A stretch of DNA of 64,000 nucleotides from Elusimicrobiota bacterium (lineage in GTDB: Bacteria; Elusimicrobiota; Elusimicrobia; UBA1565; UBA9628). Both the position numbers and the translations under genes were made by a program. This document shows, one piece after another, positions 4,860 through 53,679 of this stretch (position 1 is its first letter; each line of letters starts with the position of its first letter). The notes under the pieces are model-generated. The model was not told the origin of the DNA. It saw nothing but the letters and a program-made list of their open reading frames with translations, and searched no databases. The stretch covers positions 1,493-65,492 of the forward strand of contig DAIDHI010000044.1 in assembly GCA_027452025.1 (NCBI GenBank). The letters are read 5' to 3'.

Positions 4860-4870
4860 ACTTCGGTACG

Positions 4871-5176: not shown

Positions 5177-5215
5177 CGGCGTCCGGCCGCGGCGCCAAAA
5201 TGCGATAATCGCGGC

Positions 5216-22413: not shown

Positions 22414-22458
22414 GCGTCACGCCACCGGCGTGGACCGGAGCGGCCGCGGCCTGCGACA

Positions 22459-33740: not shown

Positions 33741-33779
33741 CGTCCCCGGCTCCCTCTCTCCGGCCGGGGACGGTTTTTT
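33741..33779. terminator. Bidirectional intrinsic terminator downstream of the GAF gene
   Basis: cgtccccggc/gccggggacg 10-bp stem flanked by A6 and T6. Confidence 0.7.
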
Positions 33780-34321
33780 CAGAGGGGCTTGCCGACGTCC
33801 TGGAAGGGGCGCACCAGCCGCTCGAGCCAGCGCTGGTCCATCTCGTCGAAGGCGGCCGGCTCGTAGCTGTCGACGTCGAGGACGCCGAAGACCTTGCCGG
33901 CGAAGTCGAAGACCGGCACGGCGATCTCCGAGACGACCTTCGCGTCGCAGGCGATGTGCTCGGGGCCCAGCGCCTTGACGTCGGAAACGACCAGGGGCAG
34001 GCCGCTCTTGAGGACCTTGCCGCAGACGCCGTGCAGGGACAGCGGGTTGCAGGCGGGCTTGTCGCGGTGCGGGCCCAGGGACAGCTCCGCGCCGTTGGGC
34101 GCCAGCAAATAGAAGCCGCACCAGGAGTAGGGGCTGCCGCCGAAGTTGTCCCAGAGCGCCTCGATGACGTCGCGCATCATGCGGTCCGTCGTCAGCTGCC
34201 GCCGGCGCCACTTGCCCTCCAGGGTCTTATGGACGCGGTCATAGCGCGCCCGCGAGGGGCGCTGCTTGAGCTTCTGCATCTCCTCGATGCGCTTGGAAAT
34301 CTCGTCTAGCTCTTCAGCCAT
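33779..34321 (-). CDS. GAF-domain protein (free methionine-R-sulfoxide reductase / YebR-like)
   Basis: GAF-fold core with conserved Cys residues (…YSWCGFYLL…HIACD…). Confidence 0.65.
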   Translation of the reverse strand: MAEELDEISKRIEEMQKLKQRPSRARYDRVHKTLEGKWRRRQLTTDRMMRDVIEALWDNFGGSPYSWCGFYLLAPNGAELSLGPHRDKPACNPLSLHGVCGKVLKSGLPLVVSDVKALGPEHIACDAKVVSEIAVPVFDFAGKVFGVLDVDSYEPAAFDEMDQRWLERLVRPFQDVGKPL

Positions 34322-35342
34322 GGGCGATCAATTGTCCGCAGGCTCCCTGGATGTCGCGGCCCAGATTCTGCCGCACGGTGGCGTGAATGCCGGCCGAAAG
34401 CAGCCGGCTCTGGAATTGCCTCGCGTTCTCTTCCGGGGTGGCTTGATGCGGCGTGTCCGTCTGGTTAAAGATGATCAAATTGACGTGCAGCAGTTCAACC
34501 GGGCCGCTGGCCTTGACGAAGTCGACGAGCTTCTCGGCGTCGGAAGCGCAGTCGTTCTCCCCGCGCAGCAGCACGTATTCCAGGAAGACCTTCCGGTTGG
34601 TCTTGGCGACGAAATCGCGCAGGGCCTTCGAGAGCCTGGCCAGCGGATAGGCCTTGTTGACGGGCACGAGCTTGGTCCGCAGCGCGTCGTCGGCGGAGTG
34701 CAGGGAAAGCGCCAGATTGACTTGCGGGAAGTCGTCGGCGAAGCGCTCGATGCCCGGGACCAGGCCCGACGTGGAGACGGAGATGTGCCGCGCCCCGATG
34801 CCGAACGACTTCTGGTCCATCAGCGAGCGCAGGCTCTCGGCCACCTCGTCGTAGCAGGCGAAGGGCTCGCCCATGCCCATGTAGACGACGTTGTCCAGGC
34901 GCCCCGGAAGACTCTCGCGCCGCATGTATTGGCGCCAGAACAGGACCTGGTCGGTGATCTCCTCCGGGGTGAGGTTTCGAGACAGCCCCATCAGGCCCGT
35001 GGCGCAGAAAGTGCAGCCGATGGCGCAGCCGACTTGGCTGGAAATGCAGGTCGTCCAGCGGCTAACGCTTGGCCGCAGCAGCACCGTCTCCACGACCTTG
35101 CCGTCGGAAAGCTTGAGCAGCGCCTTGCGCGCGCGGCCGTCGTCCGAGACGCGCAGGCGCTCGAGGGCGTGGCTCATGAAGGCCACGCCGGCGGAAAGGC
35201 TCTTGCGCAGGTCGGCCGGCAGCACGGCGATGTCCTCGAAGGAGGACGCGGCCTCCGAGAAAGCGGCGCGGCGGATCTGGTCGAGACGGTAGGAGGGCGC
35301 CCCGGCGCCCGCAAGCGCCGCGGCGACGCGCGACAGGTTCAC
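34314..35342 (-). CDS. rlmN: 23S rRNA/tRNA adenine-C2 methyltransferase RlmN (radical SAM)
   Basis: CxxxCxxC (GCAIGCTFCATG), the catalytic Cys region, and NLIIFN near the C-terminus. Confidence 0.88.
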   Translation of the reverse strand: MNLSRVAAALAGAGAPSYRLDQIRRAAFSEAASSFEDIAVLPADLRKSLSAGVAFMSHALERLRVSDDGRARKALLKLSDGKVVETVLLRPSVSRWTTCISSQVGCAIGCTFCATGLMGLSRNLTPEEITDQVLFWRQYMRRESLPGRLDNVVYMGMGEPFACYDEVAESLRSLMDQKSFGIGARHISVSTSGLVPGIERFADDFPQVNLALSLHSADDALRTKLVPVNKAYPLARLSKALRDFVAKTNRKVFLEYVLLRGENDCASDAEKLVDFVKASGPVELLHVNLIIFNQTDTPHQATPEENARQFQSRLLSAGIHATVRQNLGRDIQGACGQLIAHG

Positions 35343-35343
35343 C

Positions 35344-35985
35344 TCAGTACGTCGCCTCCATCACGTCGGGGTGCTCCATGAGCCTCTTCATGACGCGCTC
35401 CTGGACGCGGCGGCCCCCGGAAGTGAACCACTCGCTGTAATAGACGCCGCCCCGCTTCATGACCTTGCGGCGGATGACGTGGAGGTTGGACTCCTGGAAG
35501 ATGCGCTCGATGGAGGTGATGGCCTCGGGGTCGAACTTGCAGATGATGCGGTAATGGTGGCGCTCCTGCCACTCGTCGATGATCGTGTCGAGCGGAGTGA
35601 AGGCGAGCTGGACGAACAAGACGGTCACGGTGGCCACCGAGCATAGGAAATAGTCGCCGAAGCCCAGGCCCATGCCGACGGCGGCTACGGTCCAGATGGT
35701 GGCCGCCGTCGTCAGGCCGACGACGTGCTCGCCGTCTCGCAGGATCGCGCCGGCGCCGAGAAAGCCGATGCCGGCGATGATCTGCGCCGGGACGTGCGCG
35801 TCGCGCACGTCGAAGGCCTTGAGCGAGACGATCGTGAACAGGGCCGCGCCCACGCAGATGAGGATGTTGGTGCGCAGGCCGGCGACCTTGTTGCTGACTT
35901 CGCGCTCGAGGCCGATGGTGCCGCCCATGACGACGGCGGCGAAGACCTTGAGGACGTCCGGATGAAGGTGTGTCAGAAATCCCAT
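35344..35985 (-). CDS. mgtC: MgtC/SapB family membrane protein
   Basis: MgtC N-terminal TM domain (GGTIGLERE motif). ATG at 35985 with a GGAGG SD; the longer track ORF is an upstream extension. Confidence 0.85.
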   Translation of the reverse strand: MGFLTHLHPDVLKVFAAVVMGGTIGLEREVSNKVAGLRTNILICVGAALFTIVSLKAFDVRDAHVPAQIIAGIGFLGAGAILRDGEHVVGLTTAATIWTVAAVGMGLGFGDYFLCSVATVTVLFVQLAFTPLDTIIDEWQERHHYRIICKFDPEAITSIERIFQESNLHVIRRKVMKRGGVYYSEWFTSGGRRVQERVMKRLMEHPDVMEATY

Positions 35986-35993
35986 CGCGCCTC

Positions 35994-37397
35994 CTAGCAG
36001 ACCCCGGCCGGCGCCCGCGCCGCCGCGGCGCGCAAGGCCTTGGCGGCGGCCTCGCGCCCCGAGCGGATGCAGTCCGGGATTCCCACGCCGAAATAGGAGC
36101 AGCCCGCGAGCACCAGGCCCGGATGGCCCTGCACGCAGGAGTCCAGCCGCTTGAGGCGCAGCTGGTGGCCGACGGTGTACTGCGGGTTGGCCCGCACCCA
36201 GCGAAACACCCGGGTCAGACGCGGGTGCGCCTCGCCGATGCCCAGGATCTCCTTGAGCTCGCCGCGCGCCTGGCGGGCGATCTGCGAGTCGTCGGCGTCG
36301 ACGCAGGCGTCGCGGCCCGCGCCCCCGAGGAAGGAGCGGATGAGCGCGTGGCCGGCGGGAGCCCTGTTGGGAAACTTCGAGGAGGTGTAAGTCGCCGCGA
36401 CGGTGGCCTTGCCTTGGGAGCGGGGCACGATGAAGCCGAAGCCCGAAGGCTCGCTCTTGAGCGCGCCCGGCTCGAAGAGCATCGAAACGGTGGCCGTCGA
36501 GGCGAAGGGGATCTCGCGCAGCACGTGAGAGAGCTCGAAATCGTAGTCGCCGACGACCTGCGCCAGCGCGTTGGCCGGAAGGGCGCAGATCACGGCGTCG
36601 GCCGAGAGGACCGTCTCCCCCGCCTGGATATGCCACTGCCCGCCCCGCCGGCGCAGGGAAGAAACGGGCGCGCCGGTGCGCACCGTCTGGGGGGGCAGCT
36701 TGAGGGTCAAGGCCTCCACCAGGCGTCCGAGGCCGCCCCGCAGCGTCATGAAGGTCGTCAGCTCCGGGTCGGCCTTGCGGGCCTTGCGCTTGAGCATCGC
36801 GCGCGCCAGCCCCCCCTGCCGCTCCATCTCGCGCAGCTGAGGGAAGGTCGCCGCCAGGCTCATCTGCTGCGGGTCGCCCGCGTAGATGCCGGACAGCATG
36901 GGGCCGATGAGGCGCTCGTAGGCCTCCGGGCCCAGGCGCCGGCGCGCGAACGCCGCCAGAGACTCGTCGAGCGTCTCGGGCCCCGGCTTCAGGAAGTATT
37001 CCAGCGCCATGCGGGCCTTGCCCTTCCAGGTGAAAAGATCGCAGAGCAGAAAGGACAGCAGCCGCCGCTGCGGAATCGCCTTGAGCCGCCCCTCCCAGAG
37101 CACCGAGACCTTCGGGTCGCCTTCCGTGCCGACGAGGTCCAAGGAAAGGCCGAGCTCGCGGACGAGCTCGAGCGCCTGCGGCTTATAGGTGATGAAGGAG
37201 TCGGGACCGCCCTCGATGACGGCCCCGTCGCGAGACTCCGTCACGATCTTGCCGCCGACGCGCGAGGAAGACTCAAGCACCACGACGGAGATGTTGCGGC
37301 GCTCGGCCTGGGCCTTCTTGTGCAGCTCGTAGGCGGCCGTCAGGCCGGTGATGCCGGCCCCGAGCACGACGAAGCGGGATTCAGCGGCTGTATTCAT
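35994..37397 (-). CDS. hemY: Protoporphyrinogen/coproporphyrinogen oxidase (HemY-type, FAD)
   Basis: FAD fold VVLGAGITGLTAAYEL with PPO-like length. The ATG at 37397 overlaps the hemE 3' end by 17 nt. Confidence 0.85.
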   Translation of the reverse strand: MNTAAESRFVVLGAGITGLTAAYELHKKAQAERRNISVVVLESSSRVGGKIVTESRDGAVIEGGPDSFITYKPQALELVRELGLSLDLVGTEGDPKVSVLWEGRLKAIPQRRLLSFLLCDLFTWKGKARMALEYFLKPGPETLDESLAAFARRRLGPEAYERLIGPMLSGIYAGDPQQMSLAATFPQLREMERQGGLARAMLKRKARKADPELTTFMTLRGGLGRLVEALTLKLPPQTVRTGAPVSSLRRRGGQWHIQAGETVLSADAVICALPANALAQVVGDYDFELSHVLREIPFASTATVSMLFEPGALKSEPSGFGFIVPRSQGKATVAATYTSSKFPNRAPAGHALIRSFLGGAGRDACVDADDSQIARQARGELKEILGIGEAHPRLTRVFRWVRANPQYTVGHQLRLKRLDSCVQGHPGLVLAGCSYFGVGIPDCIRSGREAAAKALRAAAARAPAGVC

Positions 37398-38409
37398 GCA
37401 CCCATTCGACGACGGCCTTGACGCTGCTGACGGGCGTCTGCGGCAGCAGGCCGTGTCCCAGATTGAAGATGAAGCCGCGGCGTCCGGCGGCCTGCCGCAG
37501 CACGTCTTGGACGGCTTTCTTGAGCTCCCGCCGGGGAGCCAGCAACAGCGCCGGATCGAGGTTTCCCTGGATGCCGCGCGCGCCCACGCGCCGCCAAGCC
37601 TGCGAAAGCTCGACACGCCAGTCGACGCCGATCACGTCGCCGCCGGCCGAGGCGAAATCCTCCAGGAACCCGGCCGTCCCGGTGCCGAAGTGGATGACGG
37701 GCACGCCGGTCTTGCGCGCCGCCGTCAGGACGAAGCGGGAGTGCGGCAGGACGAAGCGGCGGTATTGCGAGGGCGACAGCGCCCCGATCCAGCTGTCGAA
37801 GAGCTGCACGGCCTGCGCCCCGGCGCGGACTTGCCCGGCCAAGTAGTCCGCGGTGACGCGGCGCAGCTTTCGCATGAGCAAATCCCAGGCGGCGGGCTGC
37901 TCGTGCATGAAGGTCTTGGTCCTGGCGAAGTCCTTGGAGGGGCCCCCCTCGATGAGGTAGCTGGCGAGCGTGAAGGGAGCGCCGGCAAAGCCGATGAGCG
38001 GCCGGGGCGCGAGCGCCCGGCTCGCCAAGCGCGCGGCGGAGAAGACGCAGCCGAGGCCTTCCTCGACGTCGAAGTCTTTGAGACGCCGCACGTCGGCGGC
38101 GCGGCGCACGGGGTTGTCGATGACCGGCGCGGGCGCGAAGCGCAGCCGCGCGCCCATCGGCTCCAAAGGCAGCAGGATGTCCGCGAACAAGATCCCGGCG
38201 TCCACGGGCATGGCGCGCGCCGGCTGCAGCGTGACCTCGCAGGCGAGCTCCGGCGTCTTGGCCAGTTGGAGAATCGAGTAGCGCTTGCGCAGCGCGCGAT
38301 ACTCCTCCATGTAACGCCCGGCCTGTCGCATGAACCAGACCGGGGTCCTGTCGACGGACTGGCGGCGACAGGCCCGCAGGAAGCGTCTTTCTGGCAAGGA
38401 CATGAACAC
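37381..38409 (-). CDS. hemE: Uroporphyrinogen decarboxylase
   Basis: N-terminal PVWFMRQAGRYMEEY and a URO-D fold throughout. Confidence 0.92.
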   Translation of the reverse strand: MFMSLPERRFLRACRRQSVDRTPVWFMRQAGRYMEEYRALRKRYSILQLAKTPELACEVTLQPARAMPVDAGILFADILLPLEPMGARLRFAPAPVIDNPVRRAADVRRLKDFDVEEGLGCVFSAARLASRALAPRPLIGFAGAPFTLASYLIEGGPSKDFARTKTFMHEQPAAWDLLMRKLRRVTADYLAGQVRAGAQAVQLFDSWIGALSPSQYRRFVLPHSRFVLTAARKTGVPVIHFGTGTAGFLEDFASAGGDVIGVDWRVELSQAWRRVGARGIQGNLDPALLLAPRRELKKAVQDVLRQAAGRRGFIFNLGHGLLPQTPVSSVKAVVEWVHEYSR

Positions 38410-39228: not shown

Positions 39229-40740
39229 TTAGACGGCCAGCAAGGTGTCGGCGGTGCGCAGGATCTCGAGCAGGGAATCGGCCGTCTTGGCGCGCAGGAG
39301 CTTTCGGCGCAGGTTCTCGTTGGTGACCAGCGAAGCGATGCGCCCCAGCACCTTGAGCTGGATGACCGGAGAAGCGGCCGGAGTCAGGATCAGGAAGACG
39401 AGGCGCACGGGCGCGCTGTCGGGCGCGGGGAAAGGCACGGGCTTGGCGAAGCGCCCGACGGCCACCAGCGGCCGGTCGAGATTGAGCAGGCGGCCGTGGG
39501 GCACGGCTACGCCCCGGCCCACGGCGCTGGAGAACTTCATCTCGCGCTCCCAGACGACCTGAAGAGCCTCCGCTTCCTTGAGCGCGGGATGCGCGGCGGC
39601 GAGCTTTCCGAGCAGCTGGGTGATCGCGGAGCGCCGGTCGGCGGCCTGGAGGTTGACCAGCGCGGCCGAGGGCACGAGCACGTCCATGAACGACCAGGCT
39701 TGCGGCAAGTCGAACTCGTCGTGGACCTCGCCGATGAGCTCCTCGATGATGTCTTCAAGCGTCAGCAGGCCCACCACCTGTCCTAGGCCGTTGCGCACGA
39801 TGGCCATGTGGATGCCCTTGTCCGGGAAGTATTTCAGGAGCTTCTCCAGCGGATCCGACTCGAGGACCTCGGCGACGTCGCGGCGGGCGTGCTTGAGCTC
39901 GGGCACCTTGCCGTCCTGGGACTTGAGCAGCAGGTCCTTGACGTGCACCATGCCGACGACCCGGTCGAGCCCGTCCTCGCACAGGGGATAGCGCGAGTAG
40001 CGCCGGCCGCGGATGATCTCCCGGTTCTCGGCCCAGCTCTTGCCCAGAGACAAGTAAGCGATCTTGTCGCGGGGCGTCATCGCCTCCGAGACCCTGGCCT
40101 TGCCGAAGTCGAAGAGGTTTTCGAGCAGCAGCAGGCGCTCGAGTGGCAGGGTGCCGCGCTCCTGCGTCTCGCCAAGCAGGATGCGCATTTCCTCCTCGGA
40201 GAGCGCCGACTCGCTCTGAGCCGCGGGACCCAGGCCCATGAGGCGCAGCAGCGAGACGGTGCACCAGGACATGAAACGCACGGGCAGCCGGAAAGTCAGG
40301 GCGAAGAGCTGCAGGGGGTAGGCGCCCCACAACGCGATCATCTCGGCTTTCTGAAGTCCCACGCCGCGCGGCAGCAGCTCGCCAAAGAGGCTTTGCAGCC
40401 AAGACAACAGCAGCAGGCCCAGCGCGTACGACAGCCCGAAGAGGGCCCTCGGCGACAAAAGCGGCGACCAGCCGCCCATGCCCGAGCGCAGCCAGCCCGC
40501 CACCGCGGGCTCCCCGATCCAGCCGATCGCCAGGGCGATGAAGGTCATGCCCAGCTGGATCGCGGCCAGGTAATCGTCGAGACGGGCCTGGACCTCCTGC
40601 ACGCGCAGGGCGCGGACGTTGCCGCGGCGCGCCAGCATCTCGATGCGGGAGGCGCGCACCCGCACGAGGGAATATTCCATCAAGACGAAGAGCGCGTTGA
40701 GCCCGATGAGCAGGAGGACCACCAGAAGCAGGGCGGGCAT
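39229..40740 (-). CDS. CNNM/CorC-family transporter (DUF21 plus CBS pair) fused to a C-terminal PTS EIIA(Ntr/Fru)-type domain
   Basis: N-terminal DUF21 4-TM region and CBS pair. The C-terminal ~140 aa carry PtsN-like motifs (GVAVPHGRL; PVRLVFLILTP) in place of the usual CorC_HlyC domain. Confidence 0.7.
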   Translation of the reverse strand: MPALLLVVLLLIGLNALFVLMEYSLVRVRASRIEMLARRGNVRALRVQEVQARLDDYLAAIQLGMTFIALAIGWIGEPAVAGWLRSGMGGWSPLLSPRALFGLSYALGLLLLSWLQSLFGELLPRGVGLQKAEMIALWGAYPLQLFALTFRLPVRFMSWCTVSLLRLMGLGPAAQSESALSEEEMRILLGETQERGTLPLERLLLLENLFDFGKARVSEAMTPRDKIAYLSLGKSWAENREIIRGRRYSRYPLCEDGLDRVVGMVHVKDLLLKSQDGKVPELKHARRDVAEVLESDPLEKLLKYFPDKGIHMAIVRNGLGQVVGLLTLEDIIEELIGEVHDEFDLPQAWSFMDVLVPSAALVNLQAADRRSAITQLLGKLAAAHPALKEAEALQVVWEREMKFSSAVGRGVAVPHGRLLNLDRPLVAVGRFAKPVPFPAPDSAPVRLVFLILTPAASPVIQLKVLGRIASLVTNENLRRKLLRAKTADSLLEILRTADTLLAV

Positions 40741-40793
40741 GCCGACGACTATATAATTATTGCGCCAAGTGTGCTATTATAGGGGAACCCCTT

Positions 40794-41276
40794 ATGGATC
40801 AAGCCCAGCCGGCGTTCAAGCCGCTCAAGGAGATCGGCCAACTGCCGCTCTCGGACACCAGCGACCTGAAGTTCTACGTTGACGAATACAAGGGCTACAA
40901 GTACGGCTCGATCCGCACCTTCGTCAAAGGCGAGTCCTACTCGGGTCCGACCAAGTCCGGCATCACCTTCAACCCCTCCATCCTCGAGGGCATCCTCGAC
41001 GCCCTGGGAAAGCTTCCCTCGGAGCCGACCGATCTCGGCGAGCGGGAGTTGGCGCGCTTTCCCAAGAAGATGGGCAGCGAGCTCGTCGTGCGCATCACCA
41101 TCTTCAAGGACGCCACCGGCGTCGACCTGCGCGAGTGGGTCGAGGACGTGACCTACAAGGGCTGGTCCAAGAAAGGCGTGCGCATTCCTTATAAGGACCT
41201 GCCCAAGGCCCGCGATTTCCTCAAGGCTATGCAGCCGCTCATCGCCCGCGAGGGCAAAGTCAAGCCCGCCGAATAA
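40794..41276 (+). CDS. Tandem PC4/YdbC-like ssDNA-binding domain protein
   Basis: Two internal repeats: KFYVDEYKGYKYGSIRTFV...KSGITF and RITIFKDATGVDLREWVEDVTYKGWSKKGVRI, matching the PC4 'IDIREYW...KGISL' pattern. Confidence 0.55.
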   Translation: MDQAQPAFKPLKEIGQLPLSDTSDLKFYVDEYKGYKYGSIRTFVKGESYSGPTKSGITFNPSILEGILDALGKLPSEPTDLGERELARFPKKMGSELVVRITIFKDATGVDLREWVEDVTYKGWSKKGVRIPYKDLPKARDFLKAMQPLIAREGKVKPAE

Positions 41277-42270
41277 GCCTCAGTTCGAGCTCGCGCGCCA
41301 ATTCCAGGCGGGTCCTCAAAGCGCGCGGGAGATAGCCGACGGCCAGGGCCCGGTCATAGACCCCCAGCGCCTGCCGATGGCGCCCCGCGCGCGACAAGGC
41401 GATGGCTCGCCACCAATAGGCATAGGTAGGCGCCGGATCGACAGCCAGCAGGAGGCGGCATCCGCGTGCCAACTTCTCCCACCGCTGGTGCCATAGGTCA
41501 TCCCACGCCAGGGCGTAATGCCGGTCCAGCGCCAGGGAGTCCGGAAAGACCGGAGAGCCCCAGACGCGGCTCATGCGGGCATAGTTGCGGCTCAACGCGG
41601 ACTCGTCGGCGCGCAGGAGCTTTTCATGCCGGACGGCGATGTCGCCGCGATACAGGATGCGCGATCCCCGCTTCCGGGCCGTCAGGCAGAAGTCGGCGTC
41701 CTCGTATTGCTGGCGCAGGCTCTCCCTGAAATTTGTTCTCTGGAAGAGCTCTCCGCGCACGAGCATGCAGGTTCCCGCGACTCCGTCGCAGTAGCGGACG
41801 TAATTTCTCTGACCCAGGTCCGGTTCTTCGCGGCCGTGCTGGGCCCTCCACAGAAACATCTCGGCGCCGCAGATTCTCCCATCCGGATAGACGCTTCGGC
41901 AGCCCACGATGTCGGTCGTCGGGCCGGCCTCCAGGGCCGCGCCCAAAAGGCGCGCCAGCCATCCCGGAGACGCCGCGGCGTCGTCATCGAGGAAGGCGTG
42001 CCAGGCGGCGGGAAACCGGGCGACGGCCTCGTTGAGGGCGGCGGCCTTGCCTTTGTTGCTCGAATGGTTCAGGAAGTGGAGGCGGCGGCGGCGAGCGTAT
42101 CGGCGCAGAAAGCCTTCCGTCCCGTCCCGAGAACCGTTATTGACCACGATCAGCCGATAAGCGACGCCGCGCGTGTGGCGTTCGATGGACTCCAGGCACC
42201 GCCTCAGGGAAGGCAAGGCGTTATGCGTGACGACCGTCAGCGAAACGGCCCGGGAGTCCGAAGCGCTCAT
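41260..42270 (-). CDS. Family-2 glycosyltransferase
   Basis: GT-A N-terminus (SLTVVTHNALPSLRRCLESI...VVNNGSRDGT) and a DxD region. Confidence 0.8.
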   Translation of the reverse strand: MSASDSRAVSLTVVTHNALPSLRRCLESIERHTRGVAYRLIVVNNGSRDGTEGFLRRYARRRRLHFLNHSSNKGKAAALNEAVARFPAAWHAFLDDDAAASPGWLARLLGAALEAGPTTDIVGCRSVYPDGRICGAEMFLWRAQHGREEPDLGQRNYVRYCDGVAGTCMLVRGELFQRTNFRESLRQQYEDADFCLTARKRGSRILYRGDIAVRHEKLLRADESALSRNYARMSRVWGSPVFPDSLALDRHYALAWDDLWHQRWEKLARGCRLLLAVDPAPTYAYWWRAIALSRAGRHRQALGVYDRALAVGYLPRALRTRLELARELELRLIRRA

Positions 42271-43730
42271 GCGACGGCGAATCCGGAGGGCTCGAACTGG
42301 ATCTGCCGCGGCTTGCGCTCGACGTCGATGCCGTGGCGCATCGCGCAGGCATGAAGGGCCTGGTAGCGCCCGCGCCGGACCTCATAGGTGTTGAAACCGT
42401 CGCGCGTGGACCAGCGCCGGCGGTCCGTCAGGGGTTGCGCGACGCCGAACTCCCGGCGATGCGCGTCCAAAAAGGACCCCTTCGTGATCTCGCAGCAGGA
42501 GATCGCGACCTTGTCGACGAGCCCGCTGTGACGCCGCAGAAACTCGAGCGTCAGACGAAAATCCTCCTCGGTCTCGCCGGGAAAGCCGACCATCAGGAAC
42601 AGCTTGACCCTGATGCCCGCGGCCTCCGTGTCCCGAATGACGCGCTCGGCGTCCGAGACCTTGAAGTTCTTGCCTATCAGGTCGATGACGCGCTGGCTGG
42701 CGCTTTCCATGCCGTAGGCCAGCATCTGGCAGCCGCCCCAGCGCAGCTCGCGCAGCAAGGCCGGCGTCATCGTCGGATGAAGAATGGCCATGCCGCCCCA
42801 TCCAAAATCATGCCGCCGGCGCGCCGAGGCCCGCTCCAAGCGGATCGGGGCCAGGAGACGGGAGAGCCTGGACAGCCGGCGGACGTCCCCGTTGACGAGC
42901 GAATCTCCGAATTCGATATAGTATCTCTCCGGATAAAGGCCGAGCTGGTGCCTGATTTCCGCCGCAATGCGCTCCGGGCTCATACGCCGATAGACCTTCT
43001 GCTGCAGGATGTGCGTGCAGAAGGCGCAGGCTCTGACGCAGCCCCGGCTGCCGTTGAGAAACAGCCGCTCGAGGTCGTACTGGCTCAAGTCGAAGCCGCT
43101 AAAATCCATGAAGGGCAGCGTGTCGAGATCCCGGATCTCCTCCGGCTCTCCCCCGTCCACGATGCGGCCCGCTTCCTTGAGCAGCAGACCCTTGATCGGA
43201 CCGCGCGGGCGCCCCGCCCGGCGATCGAACTTCCGCGCCAGCTCGACGATGCTTTTGTCCGCCTCGCCCAAGGCGACGGCATCGACGGTCTCATGCCCCA
43301 AGAGTTCGCCGGCCATGGTCTCCCGCAGGCACTGCGGACCGCCTAACACCACGAAGGTCTTGGGCGCGCGCTTTTTGACCCGCTCGGCCAGCGCCAAGCT
43401 GCTCTCCTCGGTGGCCTGCAGGACGGAGAAGCCCACGATATCGGGGGCGTGAGACAAGATTTCGGCCGCCTGCGCGTCCATCACCCGCCCGAAAAACCGC
43501 CTCGGACGCAGAAGGGCGCCCATGAAGTCCTCCGGATAATCGAAGTGCAGCGGCCGCTCGCGGCCGAGGCGCCGCGCCAAGGCCAGCCGGGCGCCCAGGC
43601 TGGCGTCGCAGACGGCCGGGGCGAATCCCGCCGCCTTCAAATGGGCGCTCAAGAGGGCGATGGCGTTCGAAGGGCCGCGGCCGACGAAGGCGGGGGCTTG
43701 CACTAAGACGACGCGGGGACCGGTTTGCAC
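42267..43730 (-). CDS. B12-binding-domain radical SAM protein (class B), paralog 1
   Basis: N-terminal cobalamin-binding Rossmann-like domain and radical SAM CxxxCxxC (GCVRACAFCTH). 4-nt overlap with the downstream GT2. Confidence 0.8.
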   Translation of the reverse strand: MQTGPRVVLVQAPAFVGRGPSNAIALLSAHLKAAGFAPAVCDASLGARLALARRLGRERPLHFDYPEDFMGALLRPRRFFGRVMDAQAAEILSHAPDIVGFSVLQATEESSLALAERVKKRAPKTFVVLGGPQCLRETMAGELLGHETVDAVALGEADKSIVELARKFDRRAGRPRGPIKGLLLKEAGRIVDGGEPEEIRDLDTLPFMDFSGFDLSQYDLERLFLNGSRGCVRACAFCTHILQQKVYRRMSPERIAAEIRHQLGLYPERYYIEFGDSLVNGDVRRLSRLSRLLAPIRLERASARRRHDFGWGGMAILHPTMTPALLRELRWGGCQMLAYGMESASQRVIDLIGKNFKVSDAERVIRDTEAAGIRVKLFLMVGFPGETEEDFRLTLEFLRRHSGLVDKVAISCCEITKGSFLDAHRREFGVAQPLTDRRRWSTRDGFNTYEVRRGRYQALHACAMRHGIDVERKPRQIQFEPSGFAVA

Positions 43731-43768
43731 AACGAGACGTAGTGTATTATCCTATCAACGGTTAGTCC

Positions 43769-43906
43769 ATGACTAAACCAGAAAAGCCCGAAGGCCCGCG
43801 CAAAGACGGCAAAAAGCGCCGCTATGTCGCTCCGACCTTAGTGATCGCGGGCAGCCTGCTGGCCATGTCGCAAAAGGGCTTGATGGCCACCTCTATTCCC
43901 GGCTGA
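43769..43906 (+). CDS. Candidate small ORF (45 aa): basic N-terminus plus hydrophobic C-terminus
   Basis: MTKPEKPEGPRKDGKKRRYVAPTLVIAGSLLAMSQKGLMATSIPG. Lies in the 200-bp gap between a radical-SAM gene and a GT2 gene. No clear SD; not in the ORF track. Confidence 0.25.
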   Translation: MTKPEKPEGPRKDGKKRRYVAPTLVIAGSLLAMSQKGLMATSIPG

Positions 43907-43929
43907 AGCGCCGCAACGGCCCGTCCCTC

Positions 43930-44748
43930 ATGCCTTCCTCGCCGTTGGTCAGCGTCCTCCTGACGACCTATAACCGCCTGGCCTTCCTGAAAACCGCGCT
44001 TCGGAGCGTGCGCCGCCAGACCTTCCGCGACCTGGAAACGATCGTCCTGGACGGAGGATCGGCCGACGACTCTCTGCGCTGGCTGGACCAAAACCTGCAC
44101 TCCGGCGAGAGGCTCATCAGGCTGGAGGCAAACCCCGGCCCGGTCGCCTTGATGAACGCGGGCCTCCGAGCCGCCGGCGGACGGTTCGTCGCTTTTCTGG
44201 AGGCGGACGATTACTGGCTGCCCGATTATTTGGAGTCCATGCTCCGGGAGTTCCGCGCCGGCGCGGTGCAATGGGTCTCCTCCGGCTGCCGCATCATCGA
44301 GGGCCGGCGCGTCATCGGCGCCGTCGACGCCCGCGGAACGCGCCTGCCCCGTCACGATCCGCTGCTTTTGAAGCTGACCGGCTGCAACATCCACTGCCTG
44401 ATGTCGATGAGCATGGCTCGCCGGTCGATCTTCTCGGAGATAGGCCTCTTCGATCCGGCCTATAAGTGGATCGGGATGGACATGGATTTCGTCTGCAGGC
44501 TGGCCCTGGCGCGGGGCCCGCGGGCGTTCGGCCACGCCGATCGAATCCTGGCCGTGCGCCGTCACCACCCCGAGCAGATCACGGATGTGCCGGGACCCTG
44601 GCATTGGAAGACGCCGACGCCTTGGGGCCGGGACTGCGTCGCAAGCCCCAGGCAGCGCGAATTCTACCTGGACTTGGCGCTCTACTATTGCCGCTACCGC
44701 AACGAGATCGAAGCCGCTCTGAAAGAAAGCGGCGAGAAGCCTCAATAG
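43930..44748 (+). CDS. Family-2 glycosyltransferase
   Basis: VSVLLTTYNRLAFLKTALRSV...IVLDGGSAD...LEADDYW (DxD). Confidence 0.8.
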   Translation: MPSSPLVSVLLTTYNRLAFLKTALRSVRRQTFRDLETIVLDGGSADDSLRWLDQNLHSGERLIRLEANPGPVALMNAGLRAAGGRFVAFLEADDYWLPDYLESMLREFRAGAVQWVSSGCRIIEGRRVIGAVDARGTRLPRHDPLLLKLTGCNIHCLMSMSMARRSIFSEIGLFDPAYKWIGMDMDFVCRLALARGPRAFGHADRILAVRRHHPEQITDVPGPWHWKTPTPWGRDCVASPRQREFYLDLALYYCRYRNEIEAALKESGEKPQ

Positions 44749-46244
44749 TCGAGCTTGCTCTCGTATAGATCGCAGGCCAGGCCCAGGCTTTTGGCGAGCT
44801 TGGCCGCGCGGCGGCAGCGATCGACTCGGATCTCGTGGGTGTTCGAACCGTCGGGAAGGGCCCAGCGGGTCCTGTCCGCCACGGGCGCCGCTATGCCGTA
44901 GGCGCGCGGGCGCACATCCAGGTCGCTGCCCAGCGCCATTTCGGAGAAGGAGATGCTGACCCGGGTGACGTGCTCGGCGTTTCGACGAAGGAAGTCGAAC
45001 GTTTTCTGGACGTCCTTTTCGGTCTCGCCGGGGAAGCCGAACTGGAGATAAAGCTGCGTCCCGATCCCGGCTTTTCGAGTGTTCCGAATGACGGCCTCGG
45101 CATCCTGGATCGAGAATCTCTTGGCCATCGCATCCACGACCTTTTGGCTCGCGCTTTCCAACCCATAGGACAGCCTGACGCATCCGGACGCCCTCAGTTT
45201 TTTCAGCACCGCCGGCGTCATGGTCGGGTGCAGAATGGCCATGCCGGACCAGAAGAAGGCGCCCTTCTCTCCGAGCTTGGCCAGCCGCTCCAAACGCCAG
45301 GAGGCCAGCAAATCGGCCAGCTTGGCCAGCCGCGCGATGTTCCCGTTGACCAAAGAGTCGCTGAAATCGATGAAGCGCCGCTCCGGGAAATTGCGCAGCG
45401 CGTTCTGGACTTCCAGCAGGCTCCTTTCCGGGCTCATGGCCGCAAAGCGCTTCTGCTGCAAAAAATGGGTGCAAAATCGGCAGCGCCGGAAGCAGCTCCT
45501 GACGGTATTGAGGTAGATGCGATCGCCCTCGTAATCCTCCATCGGGAAGCCGCCAAAATCCAGGAAGGGCAGGGAGTCGATGGGCTCATCCCACGCGGCC
45601 TCGCCTCCGTCCAGAACGCGGCTGCCGCGCTTCAAGATCACTCCGGGGATCAAAGGCATATCGCGGCCCCGAAGCTCGGAGCGGGCGCGCATCAGCCTGG
45701 GAAAGGAATCGTCGGCCTCGCCGGACACGACGGCATCGACGCTGGGCTCGCGGATGTATTCTCCGGCGCGGCACTGCCTCAGGCAGTCCGGGCCGCCGAA
45801 GACCACGAAGCACCCGGGCTTTCGCCGCTTGATCTCGCCGGCCAGGGCGAGGCTCCATTTTCGCGTGTAGCTCAAGACGCAGAACGCCGCCACGTCGGGC
45901 TCGGACTCAAGGATCTTATCCGCCTCCCGCTCCAAGAAGGTCTCCACGAGGCGGGGATTGGCCTTGAGCGCCTCGTGATACTCGTCATGAGCGCAAAAGG
46001 TTCGTTTGAGGGCCGCGGAAAGGGCCTTGCGCACGCGCGTGCTCGAATCGACGATCACGGGCGGGAAGCCGGCTTTTTTCGAGTGCGCCTGAAGCAAAGC
46101 CAGGCCGTTGGACGGCGTGATCCAGTCGTAGGAAGGCGGCTGAATCAGGGTCAGCCGCGCGTTATCGCCGGGCACGAGATACCTCCGAGGAACTGAAACG
46201 CCACGGAAGGGAAATGATAATAATTTAAGCCTGCCCCTCGCCAC
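44742..46244 (-). CDS. B12-binding-domain radical SAM protein (class B), paralog 2
   Basis: Collinear with the 42267-43730 protein; CxxxCxxC = SCFRRCRFCTH; shared GMAILHPTMTPA and GFPGETE blocks. Convergent 7-nt overlap with the GT2 at 43930-44748. Confidence 0.8.
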   Translation of the reverse strand: MARGRLKLLSFPFRGVSVPRRYLVPGDNARLTLIQPPSYDWITPSNGLALLQAHSKKAGFPPVIVDSSTRVRKALSAALKRTFCAHDEYHEALKANPRLVETFLEREADKILESEPDVAAFCVLSYTRKWSLALAGEIKRRKPGCFVVFGGPDCLRQCRAGEYIREPSVDAVVSGEADDSFPRLMRARSELRGRDMPLIPGVILKRGSRVLDGGEAAWDEPIDSLPFLDFGGFPMEDYEGDRIYLNTVRSCFRRCRFCTHFLQQKRFAAMSPERSLLEVQNALRNFPERRFIDFSDSLVNGNIARLAKLADLLASWRLERLAKLGEKGAFFWSGMAILHPTMTPAVLKKLRASGCVRLSYGLESASQKVVDAMAKRFSIQDAEAVIRNTRKAGIGTQLYLQFGFPGETEKDVQKTFDFLRRNAEHVTRVSISFSEMALGSDLDVRPRAYGIAAPVADRTRWALPDGSNTHEIRVDRCRRAAKLAKSLGLACDLYESKLDY

Positions 46245-46306
46245 GCAAGCCGAGATGCCTCCGAGCTTCCGCCCCCGGCCCGGGCAATAAGCTACAATCC
46301 CGGCCG

Positions 46307-47110
46307 ATGGCCCCCCGAGCGCGGCGCCTGGCGAGCATCATCGTCCCGTGCTGGAACAATCTAGAGCATACCCGCCGCTGCGCGGCGAGCATTCTCGAGA
46401 AGACCCAAGCGCCCTTTGAGCTGATTTTCGTCGACAACGGCTCGACCGACGGCACCGGGGCCTACCTCAAGGCGCTCAGCCGCGAAACCGGCGCGCGGGT
46501 CCTTGCCAATCGCCGCAATCTGGGGTTCGGCCCCGCGATCAACCAAGGCATGCGGGCGGCCGCCGGCGCCTACCTCGTCTGGCTCAACAACGACGCCGTC
46601 GTCACCACGGGCTGGCTCGAGCGCCTCAGCGACTGCGCCGAGCGCTCTTCGTCGACGGGAGCGGTCGGCCCCCACGTCAATTCGGACGGGCTGCCTCCAA
46701 GCCGTCCGCGCTCGACTCCGGAGCAGATCGCGGCCCTCCTCGCGATGAAGAAAAATCGACGCTCGCGGGTCGTGCCCTGGCTCACAGGCTTCTGCCTGCT
46801 GCTCAAGCGGCGGGCCGCGGAGCAGGTGGGCCTTCTGGACGAACGCTTTCGCATGGGAACCTTCGAGGACTACGATTACTGCCTGCGGCTGCGGCAGGCC
46901 GGCTATCGCGTCGTCCTGGCCGAGGACGCGTACGTCCACCACCACTGGCACGGGTCGCTGACGTCGCTTAAAGGTCATGGGCGCCTCACCGCGGCCAACC
47001 GCCGACTTTTTGTCGACAAGTGGTGCCGCGTGTTCCTGGACTCGCTGGCGGGCGCCCAGCCCATCCAAGCGCTCGAAGACCCCTTTTGGACCCCTCGCGT
47101 CGGGAAATGA
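46307..47110 (+). CDS. Family-2 glycosyltransferase
   Basis: SIIVPCWNNLEHTRRC...FVDNGSTDGT...FEDYDYCLR. Confidence 0.8.
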   Translation: MAPRARRLASIIVPCWNNLEHTRRCAASILEKTQAPFELIFVDNGSTDGTGAYLKALSRETGARVLANRRNLGFGPAINQGMRAAAGAYLVWLNNDAVVTTGWLERLSDCAERSSSTGAVGPHVNSDGLPPSRPRSTPEQIAALLAMKKNRRSRVVPWLTGFCLLLKRRAAEQVGLLDERFRMGTFEDYDYCLRLRQAGYRVVLAEDAYVHHHWHGSLTSLKGHGRLTAANRRLFVDKWCRVFLDSLAGAQPIQALEDPFWTPRVGK

Positions 47111-47176
47111 GGGAGGGCACCCCTGGCCGCCCGCGAAATTCGATAAAATAAAAAAACCCATGGCCCACGACGACAG

Positions 47177-47983
47177 ATGAGCGGCGAAGTCCTGGCCCCC
47201 GCCACCGCGCGGAAAGACCCGCCGAAAGCGTTTCCCTACTGGAATCTCCTCTACGAGATGACGCGCTGCGAGTTCAAGCTGCGCGACCAAGGGACCGCCT
47301 TGGGCTTCTTCTGGACCTTGCTCAATCCGGCGATCCAGTTCGCCGTGATGTACGAGCTCTTCACCAAATGGATGGGCTCGCAGGTCCCCAACTACGCTCT
47401 TTATCTGATCATCGGCCTTTTGCAATGGGGATTTTTCGCCAACGGGACGTGCATGGCCCTGATGAGCCTGCGCGCCAAGCAGGGCATCGCCCAGGGCTTC
47501 AAGTTCCCTCGCGAGATCATCGTCCTTTCCACGATCGGGACCATCCTCTGGTCGCACCTGCTCGAGCTCTCGATCGTGCTGGCGTTCCTGCTCCTGTTCA
47601 CCCACACGCTGTCGTGGACCTGGATCTATGTGCCTCTGCTCATCGCCATCGAGGTGCTGTGGACGGCGGGAATATCTCTTTTCCTGGCGCGCTGGGCGGT
47701 GGAGTTCCGGGACCTCGACCGCATCTGGTCGATCCTGATGCAGGCCGGCTTTTTCGTCACGCCCGTTTTCTATCCTCTAAAGATCATCGCCAAGAGCAAG
47801 CGCTTCTGGCTGGAGCTCAACCCCCTGGTCCACATCATGGACGGCATGCGCGCGTGCCTCCTGCGCAACCAGACTCCGCCCGACTGGATCGTGGCCCTGC
47901 TGGTCGTCGGAGGCGGCGGCCTGATGTACGGCGGCCTGCTGTGGTTTCGGGCTCATGAGGGGACCATCGTGGACCACCTCTGA
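47177..47983 (+). CDS. wzm: ABC-2 type polysaccharide/polyol-phosphate exporter permease (Wzm/TagG/KpsM-like)
   Basis: Six TM helices and an ABC-2 family signature. Confidence 0.8.
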   Translation: MSGEVLAPATARKDPPKAFPYWNLLYEMTRCEFKLRDQGTALGFFWTLLNPAIQFAVMYELFTKWMGSQVPNYALYLIIGLLQWGFFANGTCMALMSLRAKQGIAQGFKFPREIIVLSTIGTILWSHLLELSIVLAFLLLFTHTLSWTWIYVPLLIAIEVLWTAGISLFLARWAVEFRDLDRIWSILMQAGFFVTPVFYPLKIIAKSKRFWLELNPLVHIMDGMRACLLRNQTPPDWIVALLVVGGGGLMYGGLLWFRAHEGTIVDHL

Positions 47984-47985
47984 TC

Positions 47986-48759
47986 ATGGACCGGACGATC
48001 CTCCGCCTCAAGGACGTAGGCAAGCGCTTCTACCTGACGACGCGCTCCGAAAGGACGGTGTTCAAGACGTTCATGCGCCACCTCACGGGCCAGGAAGGCC
48101 AGCGGGAACTCTGGGCCCTGCGCGGTGTCAACCTGGACGTGGCGGAAGGAGAGGTCCTGGGCGTCATCGGCGCCAATGGAGCCGGCAAGAGCACGCTGCT
48201 CTCGATCATGGCCGGCATCATGGACCCTACCGAAGGGACCGTCGAGCGCGAAAAGGAGGTCCGCACTCCTTTTCTGGGCCTTGGCGCCGGCATGCAGCCC
48301 GAACTCGGCCTCGAGGACAACATCCGGCTCTGCTCGGCCCTGCTCGGCCTGTCGCGCAAGGACTGCGACGAGCGCCTGGAGAAGATCCTCGCTTTCGGAG
48401 GGCTGGAGCCCTACCGCCATGCCAAGCTCAGCGAGCTGTCCTCCGGCTATCAGATGCGCGTGGCGTTTGCGACGGCGTTCCACACCGACTCCGATTTCCT
48501 GATCATCGACGAGAGCATGGCGGCCGGCGACATGCAATTCAAGGAGAAGTGCATGCGCAAGTTCGAGGAATACCTCGCCCAAAAGAAGACCATCGTGCTG
48601 GTCAGCCACGAGATGGGCGCCATCCGCGAGATCTGCGGACGCTGCCTCTATTTGCGCGACGGCCGCCAAGTCGCCCTGGGGCCGACCGACGAGGTGGCGC
48701 TGCTTTACGAGCAGGATTGCGCCGCGAAGATCGCGGCGCAAACGCCCGAAGGGGCATGA
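47986..48759 (+). CDS. wzt: ABC transporter ATP-binding protein (Wzt/TagH/KpsT-like, short form without a C-terminal carbohydrate-binding domain)
   Basis: Walker A GANGAGKST, LSGG variant LSSGYQMR, Walker B LIIDE; 2 nt after the wzm stop. Confidence 0.85.
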   Translation: MDRTILRLKDVGKRFYLTTRSERTVFKTFMRHLTGQEGQRELWALRGVNLDVAEGEVLGVIGANGAGKSTLLSIMAGIMDPTEGTVEREKEVRTPFLGLGAGMQPELGLEDNIRLCSALLGLSRKDCDERLEKILAFGGLEPYRHAKLSELSSGYQMRVAFATAFHTDSDFLIIDESMAAGDMQFKEKCMRKFEEYLAQKKTIVLVSHEMGAIREICGRCLYLRDGRQVALGPTDEVALLYEQDCAAKIAAQTPEGA

Positions 48760-53635: not shown

Positions 53636-53679
53636 CCAAGCCGGTTTAGGCCTGGCGCCGGCTTTGCTAGAATGGCGCC

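Follow-up and report, generated by a model that had tools for sequence, protein, structure and literature searches.

Free PtsN (EIIA-Ntr) acts in trans on the K+ systems TrkA, KdpD and YcgO. In the case of YcgO, unphosphorylated E. coli PtsN binds the CorC domain and inhibits the transporter (PMC11808508). The function of CorC_HlyC was called unknown in the papers of 2021-2025 that were consulted; the CorC domain touches CBS2 and is needed for the function of MpfA (bioRxiv 10.1101/2021.02.11.430706). Regulation via the CBS pair by a phosphorylation-sensitive protein module is established for the eukaryotic CNNMs. In LacS, a fused EIIA domain is phosphorylated by HPr and regulates the transporter (PMC10710835). 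The protein considered here combines elements of these systems, as a CNNM domain and a CBS pair are followed by a PtsN-like EIIA domain in a single polypeptide. A literature search returned no published description of such a CNNM-EIIA fusion, the YcgO and LacS cases being the nearest precedents.

The gene lies in the 64-kb stretch of Elusimicrobiota DNA that was analyzed as a whole (the window) and encodes, from an ATG start, a protein of 503 aa (ORF list and codon check; Table 1). The intergenic region upstream separates it from a divergent PC4-like gene and includes a minus-strand TATAAT hexamer, while a strict sigma-70 consensus scan returned no full -35/-10 pair upstream of the fusion gene. 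Given that the downstream gene is convergent with it, the fusion gene is monocistronic. Scans of the window for riboswitches, other Rfam families and tRNAs were negative. The GC content of the window is 64-74% and long spurious ORFs are numerous in it.

Table 1. Coordinates of the fusion gene and of its features within the window.
Feature	Position	Strand	Basis
Complete CNNM-CBS-EIIA fusion gene (TAA stop at 39229-39231)	39229..40740	-	ORF list, Pfam, codon check
CNNM/DUF21 transmembrane domain, residues 7-199	40144..40722	-	Pfam PF01595; profile alignment to MtCorB 7m1t
CBS pair (Bateman module), residues ~216-340	39721..40095	-	Pfam PF00571; fold match 7cfh; alignments 7m1t, 7m1u
Short linker CBS2-EIIA, residues 341-352	39685..39720	-	Lowest pLDDT block (59) in AF2 model
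PtsN-like PTS EIIA-2 domain, residues 353-503	39232..39684	-	Pfam PF00359, PDB sequence matches, fold match
Codon CAC of His415, predicted phospho-acceptor	39496..39498	-	Alignments to 1a6j, 3urr, 2a0j; codon check
Codon of Arg399, active-site Arg corresponding to E. coli PtsN Arg57	39544..39546	-	Alignments, codon check
Codon of Gln461, at the E. coli PtsN His120 position	39358..39360	-	Alignments, codon check
53-bp AT-rich divergent intergenic region, presumed promoter region	40741..40793	.	Sequence, ORF map

The original prediction had described a DUF21/CNNM module and a CBS pair followed by a C-terminus that is not CorC_HlyC and carries PtsN/EIIA-2 hallmarks. Pfam analysis confirmed this layout, with all domains well above their cut-offs: CNNM at residues 7-199 (PF01595; E 6e-38, 130.7 bits vs cut-off 28.4), CBS in two stretches (PF00571; 47.6 bits vs cut-off 24) and PTS_EIIA_2 at residues 361-495 (PF00359; E 2.5e-25, 89.6 bits vs cut-off 27). 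CorC_HlyC (PF03471) gave no match in the protein even at E<=1. An acidic helical bundle (~180-214) precedes the CBS pair. In an AF2 model of the protein (mean pLDDT 89), the N-terminal part matches MtCorB and TpCorC, MtCorB 7m1t being the best structural match, and the CBS pair matches the TpCorC CBS domain 7cfh (TM 0.86). The EIIA part superposes on the PtsN structures 3urr, 4gqx, 2a0j and 1a6j with TM 0.86-0.92 and an rmsd of 1.4-1.7 A over ~144 residues. The pTM of 0.56 means that the model offers no confident EIIA-CBS interface.

Comparison with related proteins indicates how this architecture differs from the usual one. The nearest relatives outside the Elusimicrobia align only over residues ~5-344, at 28-37% identity, and all five of the nearest non-fused relatives sampled, from Bacillota (loci L060 and L008), Bacteroidota, Actinomycetota and Verrucomicrobiota, carry CorC_HlyC starting ~15-20 residues past CBS2. 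The linker between CBS2 and the EIIA domain is the junction, located where the relatives begin CorC_HlyC. Since CorC_HlyC occupies exactly that position in the nearest non-fused relatives, we regard the fusion as a clean swap of CorC_HlyC for EIIA.

Could two neighboring genes simply have been joined by a frameshift, a mis-assembly or a chance ORF extension in GC-rich DNA? The base composition and the abundant spurious ORFs mentioned above would favor such an artefact. However, the codon-position GC of the fusion gene (0.70/0.41/0.90) follows the pattern of a real gene, and several metagenomic sources supplied hundreds of independent sequences in which the architecture is unbroken. In two homology searches the same three-domain layout was present in all 240 of the best homologues listed. 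The EIIA part directly follows the CNNM part, in frame, at 45 of 54 independent loci, the remaining nine being contig-edge fragments. On these grounds the fusion is not an assembly artefact; the comparative data refute a merging of genes, and we assign it a practically negligible probability.

All named carriers of the fusion are Elusimicrobia/Elusimicrobiota MAGs, which fall into two deep clades; among them are GCA_016218545.1, GCA_028713125.1, GCA_054611295.1, JACQWX01, JBAZVY01 and Elusimicrobia GWA2_61_42, GWA2_56_46 and GWC2_64_44. The design is conserved across the Elusimicrobiota, an uncultured phylum. Within syntenic Elusimicrobia loci the fusion gene is a conserved backbone gene that looks single-copy, and a MgtC-family gene is found in the conserved block downstream of it. 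The closest EIIA domains outside the fusion family form the C-terminus of cation:proton antiporters, with 29-42% identity over the matched stretches.

With respect to the transport part, key residues of the CNNM domain are N15, V19 and E22 in TM1, Q62-G64-M65-T66 in TM2 and G120-E121-x-x-P124-R125 in TM3. G120, E121, P124 and R125 are invariant among homologues and correspond to TpCorC G129, E130, P133 and K134; Mg2+ export has been shown to require the G-E-x-x-P-[KR] motif. In the CBS pair, R250 corresponds to the ATP-binding R235 of MtCorB (alignments to 7m1t and to the R235L mutant 7m1u), and both R250 and T327/D330, the T/D ribose motif of CBS2, are conserved. Judged by these residues, the protein is a CNNM/CorB-type transporter whose transport core and ATP-binding CBS pair are intact.

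The original prediction had also spoken of a Mg2+/Co2+-type transporter. The assignment to the CNNM/CorB family held, while the substrate is only inferred, given that the protein keeps just two of the five Mg2+ ligands of TpCorC, namely G120 and E121. The other three are changed (S43 to N15, S47 to V19 and N90 to M65), and NCBIfam ranks the polyamine exporter PaeA first (146.9 bits vs cut-off 500), ahead of YfjD/CorB (75.5 bits); the protein scores below the cut-off of every named CNNM equivalog in NCBIfam. A comparison set was taken from a contig search with generic CNNM motifs, which gave 80 loci, two with fusion genes and the other 78 with generic CNNM relatives. The residue signature of the fusion protein at 13 key positions is common to all 78, and the idea of a degenerate transporter, drawn from the changed ligands, was rejected since the same signature is universal in this large CNNM subfamily.

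An alternative is that the substrate is not Mg2+ and that a polyamine, as in PaeA, or another cation is exported, with the EIIA domain coupling export to carbon/nitrogen status. The ranking of PaeA over YfjD/CorB and the three ligands that differ from TpCorC would agree with this. So would the positions of N90 and N94, at which the fusion protein is PaeA-like (hydrophobic, Ala) and not CorB-like, as well as an Orn/DAP/Arg decarboxylase gene that is the divergent neighbor at the second-clade locus L137. However, that neighbor was seen at one locus only, the PaeA score is far under its cut-off, and PaeA has A-D at the TM3 position where the fusion family keeps the canonical G-E-x-x-P-[KR]. Furthermore, the transmembrane signature is that of the very broad CNNM subfamily, and the MgtC-family gene belongs to the conserved downstream block. 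We consider export of something other than Mg2+ unlikely, though a serious candidate; Mg2+ is the most probable export substrate, with a related divalent or organic cation being possible.

The C-terminal domain is PtsN-like by both sequence and fold. Among EIIA sequences in the PDB, it matches PtsN with E-values of 4e-18 to 3e-13 vs 3e-5 to 2e-3 for the sugar EIIAs. In alignments to PtsN structures His415 coincides with E. coli PtsN His73 and Arg399 with Arg57. The two hallmarks that had been foreseen are both present, His415 lying in the GVAVPHGRL motif and PVRLVFLILTP coming after it, and conservation of the putative phospho-His was verified as well. Specifically, neither His415 nor Arg399 varies among 121 close homologues, and both are kept in 35 of 35 representatives of CNNM-fused clusters at 50% identity, in which identity in the EIIA domain goes down to ~33%, their strict conservation extending over the two deep Elusimicrobiota clades; outside the Arg-His site the domain falls to ~33-45% identity among these representatives. 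The pair is present in every complete EIIA domain retrieved, free PtsN-like proteins included. Five seemingly free proteins with closely related EIIA domains (P0122, P0123, P0126, P0136 and P0138) were rejected as stand-alone PtsN, as they are contig-edge fragments of fusion proteins.

The third active-site residue of PtsN, His120 in E. coli, is Gln461 in the fusion protein. At this position the 35 fused representatives have Gln in 27 cases, His in seven and a gap in one. Of 80 single-domain EIIA matches with a length of <=200 aa, a few of them contig-edge fusion fragments, 11 likewise have Gln, and for this reason Gln461 is not a mark of degeneration. The NCBIfam cut-offs for PtsN were missed (TIGR01419, 64.1 vs 138.7; NF008145, 50.6 vs 221), and Pfam also reported a weak Band_3_cyto match at residues 416-493.

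Phosphorylation control of the transporter is plausible, and the fusion probably links ion export to the metabolic state of the cell. The mechanism that we propose is a CNNM/CorB-family secondary cation exporter that has a PtsN-type EIIA domain instead of CorC_HlyC, its usual post-CBS regulatory domain, and whose export is gated by phosphorylation of His415; we would put its chances at about even. An HPr/NPr-type carrier, supplied from PEP by EI or EI-Ntr, would reversibly phosphorylate His415 of the cytoplasmic EIIA domain, whose phosphorylation state would alter its packing on the CBS pair or the acidic helical bundle and thus gate export. The PEP/pyruvate status, and possibly the nitrogen status, reported by the PTS would in this way act in cis on cation efflux. 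By analogy with TrkA, KdpD and YcgO, it would be the unphosphorylated domain that binds the transporter and holds it back, although this direction is a guess.

The donor that this mechanism needs was looked for in the sequences available. Pfam scans revealed no EI/PtsP, HPr/NPr, HprK or stand-alone PtsN among the ~50 genes of the window. None of these components, free PtsN included, turned up in the window and 53 related Elusimicrobia loci, ~0.56 Mb in all, which were also searched by tblastn using HPr and EI query sequences. The sole tblastn match (29 aa) was spurious, being antisense to a frameshifted ClpB. No PTS genes were found around nine fused genes (L001, L002, L083-L085, L088, L136, L137 and that of the window) or around two antiporter-EIIA loci, nor were rpoN, hpf, ptsO or hprK found in the window or related loci. 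A PTS has been reported in at least one family of Elusimicrobiota, the Endomicrobiaceae (PMC11257099). A literature search on the PTS of groundwater Elusimicrobia gave nothing relevant. Phosphorylation gating has against it the lack of donor genes in the window and the 53 loci, the replacement of the second PtsN active-site His by Gln461 in most members, the PtsN and CNNM equivalog scores below the NCBIfam cut-offs, the match of only two of five Mg2+ ligands, the ranking of PaeA as best match and the low confidence of any EIIA-CBS interface in the AF2 model.

The same lack of phosphoryl donor genes would suit an EIIA domain that works independently of phosphorylation. Having taken over the structural or regulatory role of CorC_HlyC, or of the eukaryotic CNBH, the domain may simply pack against the CBS pair, or may sense a small ligand or an ion, with His415 and Arg399 kept for binding or stability. 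Band 3 has an EIIA-like cytoplasmic domain that works without phosphotransfer, and the weak Band_3_cyto match, the change of the third catalytic residue from His to Gln and the fact that the post-CBS domain varies across CNNMs yet is required for function all point the same way. On the other hand, the domain is far nearer to real PtsN than to Band 3, and the Arg-His pair persists in each of the 35 diverged representatives and throughout the complete EIIA domains retrieved, as would be expected of a working phospho-site. Gln461 weighs less in this respect, given its occurrence in the short single-domain matches noted above, fusion fragments among them. In our opinion a phosphorylation-independent role is improbable, yet it deserves attention.

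The direction of control could also be the opposite. The protein may be a membrane-anchored signaling PtsN, in which the CNNM and CBS parts sense Mg2+-ATP or cation flux and control whether the EIIA domain is accessible or phosphorylated, with EIIA then acting on other targets; the protein would in that case be a transporter-sensor and not a regulated transporter. The CBS pairs of CNNMs rearrange widely with Mg2+-ATP, free PtsN has many protein targets (PMC13104625), and free PtsN was not seen at the loci examined. However, the strong conservation of the transport motifs argues for real transport, and no candidate target is linked to the gene at any examined locus. We consider this purely speculative reading very improbable.

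Gating of export by His415 phosphorylation, if true, would widen PTS-Ntr-type control from K+ homeostasis to the efflux of Mg2+ or divalent cations, and would extend it beyond the Proteobacteria into a poorly known and mostly uncultured phylum. A lineage in which CorC_HlyC has been cleanly replaced by a well-understood phospho-switch also provides a natural experiment on the role of the post-CBS domain, and the swap predicts that the post-CBS position is the entry point of regulatory input into CNNM/CorB transporters. The fusion fits the 2024 finding of PtsN acting on a CorC domain. A broader reading is that EIIA-Ntr-type and CorC_HlyC domains are interchangeable, and sometimes interacting, halves of one widespread regulatory device of cation transporters. 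Free PtsN would dock on the CorC domain in Proteobacteria, while EIIA would be hard-wired in the place of CorC on the CNNMs of Elusimicrobiota and on the CPA antiporters of Planctomycetota/Desulfuromonadales. We regard this generalization as rather doubtful; if true, efflux of Mg2+ or another cation across a whole phylum would be gated directly by a PEP-dependent phosphorelay, and since EI autophosphorylation requires Mg2+, the relay could close a feedback loop reading both free Mg2+ and PEP. In a more radical version, the genomes may be without EI and HPr, and the conserved His may be charged by another donor or may serve as a metal or ligand sensor. If no phosphorelay exists in the carrier genomes, so strict a conservation of the His would suggest that the EIIA fold has been put to a new use.

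Regarding known systems, the fusion protein shares with the CNNM/CorB transporters (MtCorB, TpCorC, S. aureus MpfA, E. coli YfjD and PaeA) the DUF21 domain, the acidic helical bundle, the ATP-binding CBS pair and the G-E-x-x-P-[KR] motif. It differs from them in having EIIA where they have C-terminal CorC_HlyC, in its 28-37% identity to the nearest of them and in three of the five TpCorC ligands. The eukaryotic CNNM1-4 likewise combine the same core with a lineage-specific regulatory domain past the CBS pair, but theirs is a C-terminal CNBH, with PRL phosphatase or ARL15 acting on the CBS pair, and these are unrelated to EIIA and involve no PTS.

PtsN, the closest solved relative of the EIIA domain, has the same fold and Arg-His phospho-site. 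It regulates cation transporters post-translationally, and its docking site on the K+/H+ antiporter YcgO/CvrA is CorC, the type of domain that is replaced in the fusion (PMC11808508). PtsN is, however, a free protein of ~160 aa, usually encoded beside rpoN and acting in trans on K+ systems, whereas the fusion EIIA is covalently joined to a CNNM transporter. In addition, PtsN has a second active-site His where the fusion has Gln, and the fusion scores under the PtsN equivalog cut-offs.

Cation:proton antiporters of the Na_H_Exchanger, Kef/CPA type resemble the fusion in carrying one or two C-terminal PTS_EIIA_2 domains with an intact Arg-His site. They belong to another transporter superfamily and to other phyla (named carriers being Planctomycetota and Deltaproteobacteria/Desulfuromonadales), and no functional characterization of them was found in the literature. 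The closest known way of working is that of LacS from Streptococcus thermophilus and lactobacilli, in which a lactose transporter bears EIIA at its C-terminus as a covalently fused, phosphorylation-dependent regulator (PMC10710835). The EIIA domain of LacS, however, has the unrelated EIIA-Glc fold (PTS_EIIA_1), while that of the fusion is of the EIIA-2 type, and the LacS transporter is a GPH sugar carrier of Firmicutes with a full sugar PTS.

The 503-residue protein encoded by the fusion gene combines a CNNM transporter with a PtsN-like tail. The codon-position GC pattern of its ORF is that of a real gene (the window is 64-74% GC), and comparative data exclude an artefactual fusion. Pfam places the CNNM/DUF21 domain at residues 7-199 (E 6e-38) and detects two CBS motifs, in agreement with the original prediction of a DUF21 module with a CBS pair. 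The claim that an EIIA domain stands in place of CorC_HlyC also held in the Pfam analysis, where PTS_EIIA_2 was matched at residues 361-495 (E 2.5e-25, 89.6 bits vs. a gathering score of 27) and CorC_HlyC gave no match even at E<=1. Among NCBIfam models, the N-terminal two thirds resemble PaeA, GldE, YfjD and CorC and the tail PtsN and FruA-IIA, with no match in either part reaching its equivalog cut-off. An AlphaFold2 model based on 121 homologues has a mean pLDDT of 89.1, with a single weak stretch in the 340-350 linker; its pTM of 0.56 means that the domains are confident and their mutual arrangement is not. In Foldseek searches of the PDB, the archaeal CorB structure 7m1t and CorC CBS pairs came up as matches to the N-terminal part, and four PtsN structures as matches to the tail (TM 0.86-0.92, rmsd 1.4-1.7 A).

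Most genes recovered in a genome scan were ordinary CNNM genes of 28-37% identity, whose alignment to the fusion protein ends at about residue 344. Five of these relatives, from Lysinibacillus, Hymenobacter, Streptomyces, a Verrucomicrobiota MAG and Phascolarctobacterium, were checked for domains, and all five have the CNNM, CBS and CorC_HlyC architecture. In them CorC_HlyC starts 15-20 residues past CBS2, exactly where EIIA starts in the fusion protein, so the C-terminal modules have been swapped at a fixed junction.

The isolated tail is closer to PtsN chains (E 4e-18 to 3e-13) than to sugar-specific EIIA chains (only E 3e-5 to 2e-3). His415, within GVAVPHGRL, aligns with His73, the phosphorylated residue of E. 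coli PtsN, and Arg399 with Arg57; at the third active-site position, His120 in PtsN, the fusion protein has Gln461. None of the three varies among 121 homologues, whose 55-76% identity is not very discriminating; the tail alone was therefore searched against a representative library of 1.84 billion proteins, and the best 150 matches were sorted by presence of the CNNM part. The predicted phosphorylatable histidine proved to be conserved, as both Arg and His are kept in 35/35 CNNM-fused representatives, in some of which the EIIA domain is only ~33-45% identical to that of the window protein. Position 461 is Gln in 27 of these, His in seven and a gap in one; it is also Gln in 11 of 80 short single-domain EIIA matches, which include a few fusion fragments from contig edges.

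Regarding the transport core, alignments show the TM3 motif G120-E121-x-x-P124-R125 to be invariant, with G129, E130, P133 and K134 as counterparts in TpCorC, a CNNM-type transporter in which G129 and E130 are Mg2+ ligands and the motif Pro is essential (PMC7875539). Arg250 corresponds to Arg235 of MtCorB, mutation of which abolishes ATP binding, and the Thr/Asp motif of CBS2 is retained. In contrast, the TpCorC Mg2+ ligands S43, S47 and N90 are replaced by Asn15, Val19 and Met65. Decay was ruled out as the reason, since residues at 13 key positions are identical in 78/78 generic CNNM relatives from many phyla; we therefore take the protein to belong, as a functional transporter, to a large CNNM subfamily. 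Mg2+ is the most likely substrate. A polyamine or other cation could be transported instead: the polyamine exporter PaeA gave the top NCBIfam score, yet far under its cut-off, and differs from the fusion protein at the G-E motif.

Identical architecture was found in all 120 best matches to the window protein and in all 120 best matches to P0133, a member that has diverged to 39-42% identity. The named matches among those listed all come from MAGs assigned to Elusimicrobia, Elusimicrobiota or Elusimicrobiales; a metagenome scan that used an EIIA-only alignment added 45 loci. In the window clade the gene lies within a conserved chromosomal backbone, flanked on one side by ClpB, a tail-specific protease (Tsp) and a PC4-like gene and on the other by hemE, hemY, (MgtC), radical-SAM, GAF and HEAT-repeat genes and ExbB-ExbD-TonB. 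In the window it is monocistronic, with 53 bp between it and the divergent PC4-like gene and with a CDP-diacylglycerol-pyrophosphatase-like gene convergent to it. The pairing with PC4 recurs in the related loci L001, L002 and L085, with the PC4-like gene close by in L083 and L084. The hemE-hemY-MgtC-radical-SAM-GAF block is repeated in L001 and L084, and in L083 without MgtC. A diverged member (L088) is likewise near heme genes (hemA, hemC, cytochrome c assembly). This MgtC/heme proximity may or may not be related to Mg2+ handling. The second-clade loci compared show no shared synteny. In one of them, the Elusimicrobiales MAG locus L137 (protein P0372), an Orn/DAP/Arg decarboxylase gene (8529-9746) is the divergent upstream neighbor, a possible hint, seen once, of a polyamine link. 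A gene for diadenylate cyclase (DAC) is found 4 kb downstream in L136.

Features of the window
Feature	Coordinates	Strand	Remarks
CNNM-CBS-EIIA fusion ORF	39229-40740	-	503 residues, ATG start
PC4-like gene	40794-41276	+	two PC4 repeats (transcriptional coactivator p15-like, ssDNA-binding), 160 aa; divergent neighbor of fusion gene
Conserved block downstream of fusion gene	33779-38409	-	
hemE	37381-38409	-	
hemY	35994-37616	-	protoporphyrinogen-oxidase-like
MgtC-family gene	35344 to ~35990	-	
Radical-SAM gene	34314-35360	-	
GAF protein gene	33779-34327	-	
Block between PC4-like gene and Tsp-ClpB pair	41260-48759		~7.5 kb; three family-2 glycosyltransferases, two B12-binding radical-SAM enzymes, ABC-2 exporter pair
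906-aa ORF	53671-56391	+	good coding GC pattern; follows ClpB
791-aa ORF	1246-3621	-	good coding GC pattern
Ammonium transporter gene	22414-23676	+	lies in stretch 20700-23676

The PC4-like gene adjoins Tsp-ClpB in L001 and L085, with one gene between them in L083. In the window a block intervenes; its GC is lower (0.63-0.66) than that of the fusion-gene/hem side (~0.69-0.70) or of the sequence past ClpB (0.68), which suggests that it is an inserted island for polysaccharide modification. The ClpB of L085 is broken into two ORFs (508 and 328 aa, 4626-7178) that the source annotation did not call as a gene, probably through a frameshift or assembly error in that MAG. Neither the 906-aa nor the 791-aa ORF has Pfam matches at E<=0.001. 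The 906-aa ORF apparently encodes a conserved, uncharacterized protein, given that 921-924-aa proteins without Pfam matches occur past the end of the block that holds ClpB and Tsp, immediately after ClpB in L083 and immediately after Tsp in L084. In the ~1.7 kb before the ammonium transporter gene, where a P-II gene might be expected, only antisense-pattern ORFs passed the codon-GC filter (20887-22394).

The most likely reading of the fusion protein is that of a CNNM-type cation exporter under cis control by its PtsN-like domain, which would be open to phosphorylation; this mechanism would call for an EI/HPr-type phosphorelay. Pfam scans detected no such genes among the ~50 genes of the window, PTS families were absent from the Pfam lists of nine fusion-gene neighborhoods, and tblastn found no HPr or EI in the window and 53 Elusimicrobia loci (~0.56 Mb in all); a single weak match was rejected as antisense to ClpB. 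The phosphorelay is thus not genetically linked to the fusion gene, and the result shows only that. General PTS genes are commonly encoded elsewhere in the genome. A mannose-type PTS has been reported in Endomicrobiaceae of the same phylum (PMC11257099), and the literature searched made no mention of EI or HPr in groundwater and soil Elusimicrobiota lineages. With no phosphoryl donor found at these loci, the EIIA domain could also stand in for CorC as a structural or ligand-binding module that needs no phosphorylation. Alternatively, the whole protein could be a membrane-anchored signaling PtsN.

Regulation in cis is a coherent reading in view of three published observations. The post-CBS module matters, as S. 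aureus MpfA without CorC loses Mg2+ protection, and HDX maps the contact of CorC to CBS2. The K+/H+ antiporter YcgO of E. coli is silenced when unphosphorylated PtsN binds its CorC domain, and phosphorylation weakens the binding (PMC11808508), so that EIIA-Ntr and CorC are already known to act at one shared regulatory node in a cation transporter. Finally, the lactose transporter LacS shows that a secondary transporter can be tuned through a fused EIIA domain that HPr phosphorylates.

Automated annotation had already labeled both halves of the fusion ('CBS domain containing-hemolysin-like protein/mannitol/fructose-specific phosphotransferase system IIA' at JGI; 'CNNM domain-containing protein' at NCBI). 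No paper describing or discussing it was found, in a search too thin on subscription journals to be proof; queries with combined terms brought up nothing beyond the YcgO paper and a general review, and a 2026 PTS-Ntr review mentions neither fusions nor Mg2+. Outside CNNM fusions, the nearest EIIA domains are carried, singly or in tandem and with the Arg-His site intact, at the C-terminus of Na_H_Exchanger cation:proton antiporters (P0132, P0137, P0145, P0161, P0184, P0243 and relatives; loci L086, L087, L138). All 120 best matches to P0184 share this architecture, which is common in Planctomycetota (Phycisphaeraceae, Pirellulales) and some Deltaproteobacteria (Trichloromonas); no PTS genes were found near the antiporter genes at the loci inspected. 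The switch seems, from both fusion types, to have been hard-wired onto cation transporters more than once, a fourth point in favor of regulation in cis. The CNNM-EIIA fusion offers a clean, testable hypothesis, useful for the function of CorC_HlyC, and not a new principle; we rate it as a variation on known kinds, CNNM transporters and EIIA-regulated transporters. The single-EIIA antiporters are similar in size to E. coli YcgO, in which free PtsN targets a tail of RCK and CorC.
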